NCBI RefSeq assembly: GCF_022846255.1
Contig: NZ_AP025682.1
Direction: 5' to 3' (one strand)
DNA length: 64,000 bases
Origin: Escherichia coli
GTDB taxonomy: Bacteria > Pseudomonadota > Gammaproteobacteria > Enterobacterales > Enterobacteriaceae
Part shown: one piece after another, positions 50,307-55,099 of the stretch
Numbering within the stretch: position 1 is the first letter of the stretch
Layout: every line of letters begins with the position of its first letter
Program-made: the position numbers and the translations under genes
The notes under the pieces: generated by a model
Told to the model about the DNA's origin: nothing
Seen by the model: the letters and a program-made list of their open reading frames with translations, nothing else
Database searches by the model: none

Positions 50307-51488
50307 TTAATGAGAGGTCAGGGTGTTATGCTGACGGTGACGGCTGACGAAACCTAACAGGAAGCACATCACAAAGACGACAGCGTACAGACCGTTTGCC
50401 GTCAGCAGCGCCGCCTGCGGACCGCTATGTTCAACAATCGGGCCGGTAACCACAAAGGTCAACATAGTACCGATGGTCCCGCAGGTCAGGACAAAGTTAA
50501 CCAGTTTTGGCGACGGTACTTTGGTCTGCTGTGAACCCAAAGTGATGATGGTGGTATAGATCGCGCTGGAGAAGAAGCCCAGGGCGAGAATTGACCACGC
50601 CATATGTGCCGGTGTTCCGGTGTTAAAGACGTACATCAGAATCGCAGCCAGACCAGCCAGTACGGTCAGAATGCGTTGCAAATCAAAGAAGCGAAGAATA
50701 AAGCTGAACGCCCACATGCCGACCATGTATGACATCCAGAAGTTACTCACCAGCGTGCCAGCGTCGTTCAGGCTCATGCCCAGGCCTTTGGCATACTCCG
50801 GCACCCAGGAGATAAAACCTAACTGACCGAGGATGTAGCACAGTGCCGCAATGGAGAGAAACAGCACGCCGATCCCCCATTTTTCTTTCGCTACCGGAGC
50901 GTCCGTTTTTGGCGCATGTTTACCCAGCGCCGGGAACTCACAGCCGAAGGTCAGAATAAAGATAGCGACGTACACCAGCCCGATGCAGGCATAAACCCAG
51001 TACCACTCAATGCTGCGCGCCAGCAGAAACGCGGCGATCATTGGGAAAATCATCCCGGCCATACTGAAGAAGGAGTCGGTAAATAACAGGCGTGAACCGC
51101 GCTGACGTCCTTCATACATTTGTGTTACCAGGAATGTACCAATCGACATGGTGATGCCGCTGACCACCCCGAGAATGAACATCGCCGCCGAGAACAGTGC
51201 CAGGCTGTGGCTGAACATCAAACCGGCAACCGCCAGCACCATCAGGAGAAAGCCAAAACGTAACTGCGTTTTCAACGGGACGATTTCCATCAGCCAGGCG
51301 TTGAGGAAGATAGAGATTAAAATGCCGGCGTTGAGGAAGGTGAAGGTATTACTCATACTGGAAACAGGCAGATTGAAATAATCGGCGATATTTCCCATCA
51401 CCATCCCGGTGACAATAACCAACGCACCGGTCAGTGCGTAGGAGAGAAAGCTAATCCATGTGAGCTTGATGCGATTGCTGTTAGTCAT
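50307..51488 (-). CDS. tsgA: MFS-type membrane protein TsgA
   Basis: 393-aa polytopic membrane ORF. Confidence 0.9.
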
Positions 51489-51749
51489 GATTGGCCTGCG
51501 TTCAAAAATAAAATGGCATAGCGGAATATGCCGCGAGCGGGCGATTTTAGGTGATTTTGTGATCTGTTTAAATGTTTTATTGCAATCGGTTGCTAAATTG
51601 CATTTTAAGAGGTGATTTTGATCACAGAATAAAAAGTGATCGTCAGGTTACATATATTTCAGATACGTAAAATTAGGTAAAGGGATGGCCTTGTTCTTGA
51701 AGGCTATTTAGAATCTCTTCACTTGCTTTTTTTCTGCTCTGTTTGTTAA

Positions 51750-52331
<582 letters not shown>

Positions 52332-52340
52332 TGATTTCTC

Positions 52341-52368
52341 GCGCGGGCAATCTTGCCCGCGCTTCTGC
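52341..52368 (+). terminator. terminator-like hairpin downstream of ppiA
   Basis: gcgcgggcaa-tc-ttgcccgcgc perfect 10-bp stem followed by a weak T-rich run. Confidence 0.5.
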
Positions 52369-52435
52369 TCTCCCGGCGTAACCCGGATTTGCCGCTTATA
52401 CTTGTGGCAAATGGACACGTTCAGGGAGGCATCAA

Positions 52436-52603
52436 GTGAAGAAACTCACCGATAAGCAAAAGTCCCGTCTCTGGGAGCTTCAGCGTAATCGTAATTTCCA
52501 GGCCAGTCGCCGTCTTGAAGGCGTCGAGATGCCTTTAGTCACTCTTACTGCCGCAGAGGCTTTAGCGCGCCTTGAAGCGCTGAGGAGGCACTATGAGCGA
52601 TAA
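52436..52603 (+). CDS. yhfG: small Fic-associated protein YhfG (putative antitoxin/regulator of Fic)
   Basis: Manual translation from GTG at 52436: (M)[54 protein letters not shown]; 3' end overlaps fic start by 11 nt; below ORF-track cutoff. Confidence 0.75.
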
Positions 52604-53195
52604 ATTCGGCGAAGGGCGCGATCCGTATCTTTATCCAGGCCTTGATATCATGCGTAACCGGCTGAACATCCACCAGCAGCAGCGGCTGGAACAGGCCGCT
52701 TACGAAATGACGGCGCTGCGTGCTGCGACCATTGAGCTTGGTCCGCTGGTGCGCGGTTTACCGCATTTGCGCACTATCCATCGCCAGCTGTATCAGGATA
52801 TTTTCGACTGGGCAGGGCAACTGCGTGAAGTTGATATTTATCAGGGCGATACGCCGTTCTGCCACTTTGCTTATATCGAAAAAGAGGGCAATGCCCTGAT
52901 GCAGGATCTGGAGGAAGAAGGTTATCTGGTTGGCCTGGAGAAAGCGAAGTTCGTCGAGCGGCTGGCGCATTACTATTGTGAAATCAACGTGCTGCATCCC
53001 TTCCGGGTGGGAAGTGGTCTGGCACAGCGGATCTTCTTCGAGCAACTGGCGATTCATGCCGGATATCAACTGAGCTGGCAGGGTATCGAAAAAGAGGCCT
53101 GGAATCAGGCAAATCAGAATGGGGCAATGGGGGATCTCACCGCGCTGCAGATGATATTTAGCAAAGTGGTAAGCGAAGCCGGGGAATCTGAGTAA
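52593..53195 (+). CDS. fic: Fic-domain protein
   Basis: 200-aa ORF; Fic-like motif [12 protein letters not shown] present but deviating from canonical HxFx(D/E)GNGRxxR. Confidence 0.9.
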
Positions 53196-53226
53196 AATAG
53201 CGCGGTTCTTTCGTACCGGAGCCGCC

Positions 53227-53790
53227 ATGATCCTGCTTATTGATAACTACGATTCTTTTACCTGGAACCTCTACCAGTACTTTTGTGAACTGGGGGCGAA
53301 TGTGCTGGTTAAGCGCAACGATGCGTTGACGCTGGCGGATATCGACGCCCTTAAACCACAAAAAATTGTCATCTCACCCGGCCCCTGTACGCCAGATGAA
53401 GCCGGGATCTCCCTTGACGTTATTCGCCACTATGCCGGGTGCTTGCCGATTCTTGGCGTTTGCCTCGGTCATCAGGCAATGGCGCAGGCATTTGGCGGCA
53501 AAGTTGTGCGCGCCGCAAAGGTCATGCACGGCAAAACCTCGCCGATAACACATAACGGTGAGGGCGTATTTCGGGGGCTGGCAAATCCACTTACCGTGAC
53601 ACGCTACCATTCGCTGGTGGTGGAACCTGACTCATTACCAGCGTGCTTTGAAGTGACGGCCTGGAGCGAAACCCGCGAGATTATGGGGATTCGCCATCGC
53701 CAGTGGGATCTGGAAGGTGTGCAGTTCCATCCAGAAAGTATTCTTAGCGAACAAGGACATCAACTGCTGGCTAATTTCCTGCATCGCTGA
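53227..53790 (+). CDS. pabA: aminodeoxychorismate synthase glutamine amidotransferase subunit
   Basis: 187-aa class I glutamine amidotransferase (catalytic Cys in GVCLGHQ). Confidence 0.95.
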
Positions 53791-53860
53791 TTTCTGATTG
53801 CTATTAAGTGATTTTTTATGCATATTTTGTGATTATAATTTCACATTGATTTATGCGTAA

Positions 53861-55099
<1,239 letters not shown>

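Follow-up and report, generated by a model that had tools for sequence, protein, structure and literature searches.

[quoted passage not shown] VbhT and Fic-1 are toxic enzymes with the canonical motif HPFREGNGRxxR, and their AMPylation targets are GyrB and ParE. In EcFicT, the D/E, N and R1 of this motif are changed to Val, Ser and Leu, and an activity of this kind has not been detected. In the crystal, EcFicT and EcFicA are tightly bound to each other at 1:1, and the SRRLEG motif of YhfG clamps Arg146 of Fic: the first helix puts S24 and E28, both of which make contacts, into the Fic active site, where Arg146 (the last motif arginine) is engaged in a salt bridge (PMC5033356). This complex is very stable (Tm of 63 °C), and the E28G substitution lowers the Tm by 10 °C (PMC5033356). 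Vertical inheritance of EcFicTA between ppiA and pabA was also reported (Stanger, Harms, Dehio, Schirmer 2016, PMC5033356). Altered FIC motifs are known to re-purpose the fold, as in the kinase Doc and in AnkX, which transfers phosphocholine from CDP-choline (PMC5033356).

Identity of the yhfG–fic locus

The window analysed in this study is a stretch of 64,000 nucleotides of E. coli DNA, and its yhfG–fic locus is the core-genome EcFicA–EcFicT (YhfG–Fic) pair of this species. Both proteins are near-identical (at least 96% each) to the chains of the EcFicT/EcFicA complex in PDB 5JFF and 5JFZ; in the comparison with 5JFF, 198/200 residues of Fic and 53/55 residues of YhfG are the same. The sole differences between the window Fic and 5JFZ_A are at residue 175 (Asn in the window, Ser in the crystal) and residue 2 (Ser in the window, Gly in both crystal constructs), and 5JFF_A carries the engineered G55R on top of the other differences; residue 55 of the window protein is the wild-type Gly, i.e. 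this is not the fic-1 allele. YhfG differs from the crystallized chain at two C-terminal positions, where Ala49 and Arg52 stand in place of Glu and Ser. The best DNA matches of the locus (99.8%) include strains IAI39 and CE10, and the locus was found in 5425/5426 complete E. coli genomes, at a single chromosomal site. In RefSeq annotations of E. coli the genes are named fic and yhfG or ficA, with the Fic product given as “putative adenosine monophosphate-protein transferase”. The motif, the overlap, the synteny and the inhibition motif are identical to those of EcFicT/EcFicA of E. coli K-12, from which nothing substantive differs; the window pair is an allelic variant of another E. coli lineage. 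What was noticed in this DNA, namely an overlapping antitoxin-like gene, a degenerate Fic motif and (as its expected consequence) no AMPylation, is thus correct but already known, since all of it was published together with the crystal structures in 2016.

The fic gene (ecficT; positions 52593–53195, + strand) starts with ATG at 52593, ends with TAA at 53193–53195 and encodes a 200-aa class I FIC-domain protein. The FIC/Fido assignment is based on both profile and fold: Fic matches Pfam PF02661 (E = 8.5e-14; 52.6 bits, the cutoff being 24), the NCBIfam equivalog NF007672 (E = 9e-130) and PDB chains 5JFZ_A and 5JFF_A (E of about 1e-134). Upstream lies yhfG (ecficA; 52436–52603, + strand; 168 nt), present in the ORF list, which starts with GTG at 52436 and ends with TAA at 52601–52603. 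Its 55-aa class I FicA antitoxin-like product matches Pfam YhfG PF10832 (E = 1.3e-24), the NCBIfam equivalog NF007573 (E = 2.7e-37) and PDB chains 5JFF_B and 5JFZ_B, and its dN/dS is 0.07–0.11. A Shine-Dalgarno sequence, GGGAGG, is located at 52424–52429 (+ strand), 6 nt upstream of the GTG, and the heptamer AGGGAGG is invariant across the genera compared. This small ORF is a genuine gene and not a chance ORF, and the first-pass annotation, in which it was described as a 55-aa, GTG-started frame ending 11 nt inside fic, is borne out by the coordinates as well as by Pfam, NCBIfam and PDB.

The resemblance to an antitoxin–toxin pair, which the same annotation had proposed, also holds. Codons 52505–52522 (+ strand) encode S24-R-R-L-E28-G29, which fits the class I inhibition motif (S/T)xxxE(G/N) in the translation, and SR(R/L)LEG is kept in YhfG of Salmonella, Leclercia and Enterobacter. 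YhfG is therefore what class I FicTA systems contain, a small, separate, upstream-encoded protein with the (S/T)xxxE(G/N) helix motif, and near-identical proteins crystallize as a 1:1 complex. The class I complex with its Glu–R2 salt bridge is assigned to the window proteins through their sequence identity to 5JFF/5JFZ, the structures being those of the other allele.

The FIC motif and its conservation

The only FIC signature motif of the protein comprises Fic residues 135–146 (52995–53030, + strand) and, as revealed by the translation, the alignment to Fic-1 and a census of 186 homologues, it is degenerate. Val139 replaces the Mg2+-binding D/E, Ser141 the central Asn and Leu143 the beta-phosphate-binding R1, while the general-base His135, Phe137, the anion nest Gly140/Gly142, Asn132 and the R2 Arg146 are retained. 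The active-site loop residues of HxFxxGxG are hence all present (H135, F137, G140, G142), but the canonical AMP-transferase signature HxFx(D/E)GNGRxxR is not, and of the acid, Asn, R1 and R2 it is R2 alone that has been kept. The motif had been read from the start as non-canonical, with the Asn and the first Arg replaced, and Ser141 and Leu143 agree with that reading, which omitted the replacement of the Mg2+-binding D/E position by Val. Searching the whole protein for a second or canonical motif gave none: there is a single HxF..G.G...R-type site, and all its columns line up with those of HPFREGNGRAQR in Pseudomonas Fic-1 (PDB 8WT0).

The proposal that such a motif argues against standard AMPylation and points to altered or lost transfer is matched by published negative results. 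Neither auto- nor target-adenylylation by EcFicT was observed, even with the E28G mutant of the antitoxin, and this was ascribed to the R1-to-Leu and D/E-to-hydrophobic changes (PMC5033356). In the work of Lu (2020), EcFic (b3361) is named among the nine Fic proteins examined; GyrB AMPylation was detectable with Fic-1 alone of the tested Fic proteins, and EcFic is absent from the listed ParE-modifying enzymes (PMC7479194). A remodelled hydrophobic pocket was described in EcFicT and proposed to serve an unknown substrate (Stanger 2016, PMC5033356). EcFicT, with both Gly residues kept and the acid and R1 lost, fits neither of the re-purposed variants Doc/Phd (phage P1) and AnkX (Legionella), in which the acid, Asn and R1 are kept. 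What distinguishes Doc is that a Lys occupies the position of the second Gly (HxFx(D/N)(A/G)NKRxxR). The window Fic is not a kinase of this type: G142 is retained, there is no Asn-Lys-Arg, and the partner belongs to the YhfG family and not to Phd.

The motif census covered 186 unfused enterobacterial cluster representatives and 40 fused homologues (226 in the clade). H135, F137, G140 and G142 are invariant across all 226, and these four together with Arg146 are 100% invariant in the 186/186 unfused enterobacterial homologues, of which 185 also have Asn132. Position 139 is acidic in none of the 186, and R1 is replaced in 177 of them. Conversely, among 120 representatives in which a motif could be recognised, most of them less than about 48% identical, 113 have the complete canonical form; one sequence (P0129, 48% identity, without a recognisable motif) was left out, as it resembles an error-ridden assembly product. 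The motif degeneracy is derived and limited to the enterobacterial clade. Pocket positions co-vary with the motif change, with A36/Y67/F71 in the clade versus E/F/Y in the canonical relatives.

The dN/dS of fic is 0.06–0.10, and both this value and that of yhfG are comparable to that of pabA (0.06–0.08), which means that fic is maintained and not decaying. With such values and an invariant catalytic His, a decaying pseudogene or a toxin–antitoxin remnant was ruled out.

Gene overlap and flanking elements

The yhfG and fic genes overlap by 11 nt (52593–52603) and are read in different frames. The Shine-Dalgarno sequence of fic, GAGGAGG (52582–52588, + strand), is located inside the 3' end of yhfG, and GGAGGCACTATGAGCGATAA at this site is kept in three genera. 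The GTG start of yhfG, its 168-nt length, the 11-nt overlap and GGAGG ahead of the fic ATG are all kept in Salmonella, Leclercia and Enterobacter. The conserved overlap and the internal Shine-Dalgarno sequence suggest that translation of the two genes may be coupled.

Upstream, the stop codon of ppiA is followed by a GC-rich hairpin (GCGCGGGCA-ATCT-TGCCCGCGC; 52341–52362, + strand). RNA folding gave an energy of -21.6 kcal/mol (z = -2.95; 0/200 shuffled sequences fold as well), and Salmonella, Leclercia, Enterobacter and Buttiauxella preserve the stem by compensatory changes. The hairpin is probably the ppiA terminator and the upstream boundary of the yhfG–fic unit; a simple terminator scan missed this hairpin, which has a poor T-tail. 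Between it and yhfG there is a conserved block, TTGC(C/T)GCTTATACTTGTGG (52389–52407, + strand), with one variable position: in six loci of five genera 18/19 positions are identical, and the flanking intergenic sequence varies. The block contains a -10-like TATACT (52397–52402) and is probably the yhfG–fic promoter. It was detected solely by cross-genus alignment and not by promoter scanning; the sigma-70 scan upstream of yhfG gave no match there (the -35 is poor), and matches were no commoner than in shuffled sequence. In the literature of 1993 the fic promoter is reportedly RpoS-dependent.

Downstream, pabA (53227–53790, + strand; Pfam GATase, E = 2e-63) begins 31 nt after fic and has its own GGAG. 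A scan of the + strand between fic and pabA found no terminator-like site, and pabA is probably co-transcribed with yhfG–fic. The order ppiA-yhfG-fic-pabA-argD is constant in all loci compared, and the locus keeps its syntenic place, flanked by ppiA and pabA, in Salmonella, Leclercia, Enterobacter, Buttiauxella and Dryocola. For structured RNA, there was no Rfam match at E ≤ 1 in 51400–54000. A link of fic to PABA or folate is said to have been reported in 1991; a literature search for such a link, prompted by the constant position of fic beside pabA, returned nothing usable, as “FIC” in the sense of fractional inhibitory concentration swamped the results.

Single-chain fusions and the function of the pair

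In Buttiauxella, Dryocola, Scandinavium and some Enterobacter, one in-frame yhfG::fic fusion replaces both genes and sits in the same ppiA–pabA slot as the two-gene loci; examples come from Buttiauxella CP110080.1 (355999–361601) and Enterobacter GCA_029676565.1. The junction, which was set from the protein alignment and NCBIfam model coordinates (the MAFFT DNA alignment misplaced the deletion gap), is at YhfG residue 28, and the first ~33 residues of Fic (the N-terminal “lock”) are lost. At least two fusion lineages exist, namely Buttiauxella/Dryocola/Scandinavium and Enterobacter huaxiensis/hormaechei. Purifying selection acts on the fused proteins (omega of 0.06–0.10), which have kept Ser24, an acidic residue 28, His135, both Gly residues of the nest and Arg146; for the AlphaFold model of a fused protein (pLDDT of 92), the best Foldseek match was EcFicT. 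Such proteins described as fusions were not found in the literature searched, and the single-chain form may be new as an observation. In the 2016 work, Enterobacter “subgroup 2” is listed merely as a “distinctive N-terminal sequence variant” (PMC5033356).

The order of elements in the fusions (an inhibitory Sxxx(E/D) helix, a turn and the FIC domain) is shared with class II Fic proteins (FICD/HYPE, EfFic, SoFic), from which the E. coli window locus differs in being unfused. Unlike class II proteins, the fusions are recent derivatives of a syntenic class I pair, with degenerate motifs and the loss of ~33 N-terminal Fic residues. Several pocket and flap residues typical of the E. coli subgroup (T40, E79, Y83 and R138) are not kept in the fusions and therefore they may be somewhat different in function, in which case conclusions drawn from them may not be transferable to E. 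coli.

Taken as a whole, it seems fairly probable that the chromosomal, vertically inherited EcFicA–EcFicT module is a domesticated class I FicTA pair that has lost its AMP-transferase chemistry. Under this explanation, yhfG and fic would be transcribed from the conserved promoter after the ppiA terminator, probably on into pabA, and the 11-nt overlap would couple their translation, keeping YhfG at least equimolar with Fic. Fic would still be an enzyme, a proposal which is based on conservation only. His135 and the phosphate nest could act not on Mg-ATP but on a phospho-linked ligand with less charge and some hydrophobic character, so that Fic would add a group to, or remove one from, a target protein docked on its flap. 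In this scheme YhfG would not be a labile antitoxin but would stay with Fic permanently, as a subunit with a regulatory or co-catalytic role. The yhfG::fic fusions suggest likewise that the complex, and not a releasable toxin, is the functional unit. We put forward, tentatively, the further possibility that YhfG-Fic is an obligate two-subunit enzyme with the “antitoxin” acid at position 28 in its working active site, since at least two lineages have welded the genes at YhfG residue 28 and kept the catalytic and clamp residues under purifying selection.

The loss of both R1 and the acid that binds the metal would be compatible, too, with a protein that binds but does not catalyse. EcFicT as a pseudoenzyme, with catalysis lost and YhfG-Fic serving for binding or as a scaffold (e.g. 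sequestering a partner through the flap), would be in line with the three replaced ATP-/Mg-binding motif positions, with the viability of the fic deletion, with the missing adenylylation in one published test (PMC5033356) and with the fact that EcFic was not reported active on GyrB or ParE (PMC7479194). We regard it as rather doubtful: His135, both nest Gly residues, Arg146 and Asn132 are invariant or nearly so in the 186 unfused and 40 fused homologues, which would be unexpected without chemistry, the clamping Ser24 and Glu28 of YhfG are conserved too, and a clade-specific pocket with conserved lining residues adjoins the motif. A catalytic role of the antitoxin acid 28, as in the deAMPylases FICD, EfFic and Fic-1–AntF, would make YhfG-Fic a hydrolase that strips a phospho-linked group off its target. 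The high stability of EcFicTA (Tm of 63 °C, 10 °C lower with E28G) speaks for this, as do the natural fusions, which hold Ser24 and the acid 28 permanently in cis. However, the motif of known Fic deAMPylases, FICD and EfFic among them, is canonical down to the metal-binding acid that is lost in EcFicT, and no AMPylating partner enzyme is known in E. coli K-12; such a hydrolase is, in our opinion, quite unlikely.

A conventional type II toxin–antitoxin system, in which free Fic would AMPylate GyrB/ParE like VbhT or Fic-1 and arrest growth and YhfG would be labile, is suggested by the class I architecture, with its upstream overlapping antitoxin gene and SxxxEG motif, by a fold very close to those of VbhT and Fic-1, and by the RefSeq product name still in use. 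Reports on growth arrest by EcFicT are inconsistent, Harms et al. 2015 (Cell Reports) reportedly being the primary source for both its toxicity and the adenylylation tests. In one review, expression of EcFicT is stated to inhibit growth strongly (PMC10886550, citing Harms 2015), while according to the structural paper there is no activity, a fic deletion is tolerated, no phenotype of it having been reported, and filamentation results from the G55R allele only (PMC5033356). The growth inhibition given in the review would be a better fit to a classical toxin. Nevertheless, the residues by which AMP transferases are defined (D/E, Asn and R1) are missing from the motif, and the published negative assays (no adenylylation even with YhfG E28G, PMC5033356; the GyrB/ParE results of Lu 2020, PMC7479194) have already largely refuted this explanation. 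Moreover, in place of the mobility, patchy distribution and links to mobile elements of type II modules, a vertically inherited core gene is found here at a fixed site in E. coli, syntenic across genera, and several genera have “antitoxin” and “toxin” joined covalently in one chain that is under purifying selection. A conventional toxin–antitoxin function is, thus, highly improbable.

E. coli Fic is the namesake of a protein superfamily spanning bacteria to humans, yet what the protein itself does has gone unexplained for more than 40 years. The first-pass annotation rightly pointed to the reason, i.e. a degenerate active-site motif combined with an inhibitory partner, which has been in print with structures since 2016. 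The fusions could serve, as proteins stabilised by nature, to screen for ligands and to identify targets, and if YhfG-Fic is truly an obligate two-subunit enzyme, these single-chain proteins would provide a stable reagent in the long search for the substrate of the founding Fic protein.

Organization and expression signals of the yhfG-fic locus

On the + strand of the window, yhfG (52436-52603) starts with GTG and comprises 55 codons, as described in the first-pass annotation; its stop is TAA (52601-52603). The 11-nt overlap with fic given in that annotation is likewise present (52593-52603, in different frames). The fic gene (52593-53195, + strand) starts with ATG and has 200 codons. GGGAGG lies 6 nt upstream of the yhfG GTG, and GAGGAGG (52582-52588, + strand) precedes fic inside yhfG. 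The gene pabA starts 31 nt downstream of fic, and the neighbours found in the window (tsgA, ppiA, pabA, argD and yhfK) are those of the classical enterobacterial locus, for which vertical inheritance between ppiA and pabA has been reported (PMC5033356).

Profile searches assign YhfG to Pfam YhfG (E = 1.3e-24 for PF10832) and to NCBIfam equivalog NF007573 (E = 2.7e-37); Fic is assigned to Pfam Fic (E = 8.5e-14 for PF02661) and to NCBIfam equivalog NF007672 (E = 9e-130). The pair is nearly identical in sequence to the two chains of PDB 5JFF and 5JFZ ('E. coli EcFicT in complex with EcFicA'). Relative to 5JFZ_A, Fic has changes at residue 175 and at position 2, where the window has Ser and both crystal constructs have Gly; 5JFF_A also bears an engineered G55R, and YhfG departs from the crystal chains in two C-terminal residues. 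Of 5426 complete E. coli genomes, 5425 carry the 901-bp yhfG-fic region, on the chromosome and annotated as fic and yhfG or ficA; its closest DNA matches (99.8%) include IAI39 and CE10. In the same survey, one genome had no match to the region, two had matches covering <80% of it, and one extra copy was located on a plasmid.

A GC-rich hairpin (52341-52362; -21.6 kcal/mol, z = -2.95) directly follows the ppiA stop, and five further loci (four other genera) preserve its stem through compensatory base changes. This hairpin is the probable ppiA terminator, with a T-tail too poor for a simple scan to flag. A 19-nt block, TTGC(C/T)GCTTATACTTGTGG (52389-52407), differs at a single position among all six aligned loci (five genera), while the remainder of the intergenic region around it varies. 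Within this block lies a -10-like TATACT, and the block probably serves as the yhfG-fic promoter, a reportedly RpoS-dependent one. The terminator scan revealed no terminator-like site between fic and pabA, and no Rfam family matched the yhfG-fic region. The GTG start and 168-nt length of yhfG, the 11-nt overlap and GGAGGCACTATGAGCGATAA are kept across genera. An overlap with an internal Shine-Dalgarno is the usual architecture of coupled translation, and we infer from the sequence that yhfG and fic are coupled in this way, which would ensure at least one YhfG per Fic.

The degenerate FIC motif and its conservation

Fic contains a single HxF..G.G...R-type site (residues 135-146, codons 52995-53030, + strand), and a search for a canonical motif elsewhere in the protein yielded none. 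Relative to HxFx(D/E)GNGRxxR, two changes had been listed in the first-pass annotation, in the Asn and the first Arg (R1); both are real (Ser141 and Leu143), but the changes number three, as the Mg2+-binding acid is replaced by Val139. The published hallmarks of the EcFicT-like subgroup are a hydrophobic residue at R1, Leu/Ile/Val in place of D/E and, in about half of the members, Ser in place of Asn (PMC5033356). The degenerate motif, in the form HPFR[VLIF]G[SN]G[LMI]AQR, is present in 120/120 closest database clusters (78-99% identity). When one representative per 50%-identity cluster was searched, 113 of the 120 matches with a recognisable motif were fully canonical, and the non-canonical matches were nearly always either fragments or enterobacterial-clade proteins.

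A column census was performed on 186 unfused enterobacterial representatives and 106 canonical relatives. H135, F137, G140, G142 and R146 (the last Arg, R2) are invariant in both (186/186 in the clade), as is N132 save for one clade member (185/186). Position 139, E or D in the canonical relatives, is never acidic in the clade (I in 96, L in 74, V in 10, F in 5, T in 1); position 141, canonically N, is N in 106, S in 75 and T in 4; and position 143 (R1), canonically R, is L in 72, I in 72, M in 33 and R in 9. Positions 36, 67 and 71 are A, Y and F in the clade versus E, F and Y in the canonical relatives. P0296, P0367 and their relatives (unfused homologues from Enterobacter sp. R1(2018) and Cronobacter) carry an intermediate motif, HPFRIG(S/T)GRAQR, with the acid and Asn gone and R1 kept. 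Such motifs suggest a stepwise degeneration, in which the acid was lost before R1.

Gly55 (codon GGT, 52755-52757) is wild type in the window, not the fic-1 (G55R) allele. It is present in all clade members of the census and invariant in 226/226 enterobacterial homologues examined, and the canonical relatives mostly have Asp (84/106), so the fic-1 mutation, the historical filamentation allele, strikes a clade-specific invariant residue. Among E. coli, Salmonella and Leclercia, dN/dS (Nei-Gojobori) was 0.06-0.10 for fic, 0.07-0.11 for yhfG, 0.06-0.08 for pabA and 0.01-0.03 for ppiA; with dS saturated these ratios are approximate, but their direction is unambiguous and the yhfG-fic pair is maintained by selection.

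Natural yhfG::fic fusions

The N-terminus of P0122, one of the 50%-cluster representatives, is YhfG-like, and 40 cluster representatives (194-200 aa) match both the YhfG and the Fic Pfam models. In NCBI genomes, the fused gene fills the slot between ppiA and pabA alone, with no separate yhfG. Fused loci syntenic to window positions 52436-53195 were located in Enterobacter hormaechei and huaxiensis (L007 and L008, 2501-3085; L012, 1501-2085), the complete chromosome of Buttiauxella sp. WJP83 (L009, 2501-3103), Dryocola (L011, 1501-2103) and a further locus (L004, 1011-1613); a single-gene fusion occurs in Scandinavium too, and other Enterobacter (L010) retain the two-gene arrangement.

The two parts are joined in frame: YhfG model positions 1-28, which comprise the inhibitory helix with its Sxxx(E/D), lead through a Pro- or Gly-containing turn into Fic from about residue 34-45 (NCBIfam coordinates). 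P0306 (195 aa) joins YhfG 1-28 to Fic 34-200 at an 'RLE' tripeptide common to both parents (YhfG R26-L27-E28, Fic R31-L32-E33). The fusions lack the N-terminal 33 residues of Fic, including the DPY 'N-terminal lock', and R0 is lost too (Arg138 to F, M or L). They retain H135, G140, G142, R146, Ser24 and the position-28 acid, which is Asp in fusions of the Buttiauxella group and Glu in those of the Enterobacter group. Purifying selection acts on them, with an overall omega of 0.06-0.10 and values of 0-0.13 for the portion derived from YhfG. The AlphaFold model of the Buttiauxella fusion is confident (pLDDT 92, pTM 0.90); it has a helix at 7-26, a loop and a helix at 37-44, and its best structural match is EcFicT (TM 0.78-0.84).

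Neighbour-joining of FIC-core sequences placed the Buttiauxella group as sister (88% bootstrap) to an unfused protein from Enterobacter sp., with the Enterobacter fusions on a separate branch. This topology, whose deep nodes are weak, suggests that fusion arose at least twice. Compared with class I and class II Fic proteins (inhibitory helix on a separate small protein or N-terminal in cis, respectively), the fusions amount to a class-I-to-class-II-like conversion. An Enterobacter 'subgroup 2' has been described as a 'distinctive N-terminal variant' marked by the loss of five residues, the absence of DPY and an R0 other than Arg, and never termed a fusion (PMC5033356); descriptions of yhfG::fic fusions as such were not found in the searchable literature. 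Rare E. coli-type single-protein readings were seen in E. coli-like Logan assemblies: in P0002 (252 aa) a frameshift at the overlap lets the reading run through, and in P0005 (233 aa) an internal deletion links YhfG at residue 46 with Fic at residue 14. Each comes from one contig, so assembly error or sporadic mutation may account for them, and the residue-28 junction typical of the conserved fusions is absent from both.

Function of the YhfG-Fic complex

YhfG-Fic was predicted as an enterobacterial toxin-antitoxin pair by Makarova et al. 2009 (PMC2701414), and its biochemical mechanism was still called elusive in a 2026 paper (PMC13327609). The antitoxin-toxin-like pairing proposed in the first-pass annotation agrees with published work: YhfG SRRLEG fits the inhibition motif (S/T)xxxE(G/N), and Stanger, Harms, Dehio and Schirmer 2016, using essentially the sequence of the window, reported a tight, stable 1:1 EcFicT-EcFicA complex (Tm 63 °C) and two crystal structures, with S24 and E28 of YhfG bound to Arg146 of Fic, clamping the active site (PMC5033356). 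AMP transfer was undetectable, with no auto- or target-adenylylation shown even with YhfG E28G (PMC5033356); this agrees with the first-pass view that the motif speaks against standard AMPylation. Observation and interpretation are thus both correct and had both been published before. EcFic (b3361) is also named among nine Fic proteins examined by Lu et al. 2020, in which GyrB AMPylation was detectable for no tested Fic protein except Fic-1 (the Pseudomonas AMPylating Fic) and EcFic is absent from the list of ParE-modifying enzymes (PMC7479194).

The best-supported reading, sub-variants included, which we consider reasonably probable from sequence comparison, is that Fic would still be catalytic, acting through its retained general base and phosphate nest on a partly hydrophobic phospho-ligand of lower charge. 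It is based on the invariance of the general base, phosphate nest and R2, the loss of the acid and R1, the co-changed pocket and strong purifying selection; a conserved hydrophobic pocket (A36, F71, V139, Y67, T40) had earlier been taken to suggest a different substrate (PMC5033356). The lost acid and R1 might also mark a pseudoenzyme or scaffold, which we find unlikely beside the invariant catalytic residues. Slightly less likely again is a complex acting as a hydrolase, in which the position-28 acid would be catalytic by analogy with the Fic-1-AntF and FICD deAMPylases. A conventional AMPylating toxin is essentially refuted by the negative adenylylation results. One review states that EcFicT expression inhibits growth (PMC10886550).

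Beside the still-catalytic reading, we tentatively entertain that the natural fusions reveal YhfG-Fic as an obligate holoenzyme. Since the 'antitoxin' can be tethered covalently and this tethering is conserved, selection appears to act on the complex as a unit, and the conserved fusions argue against classical toxin release in the enterobacterial clade.
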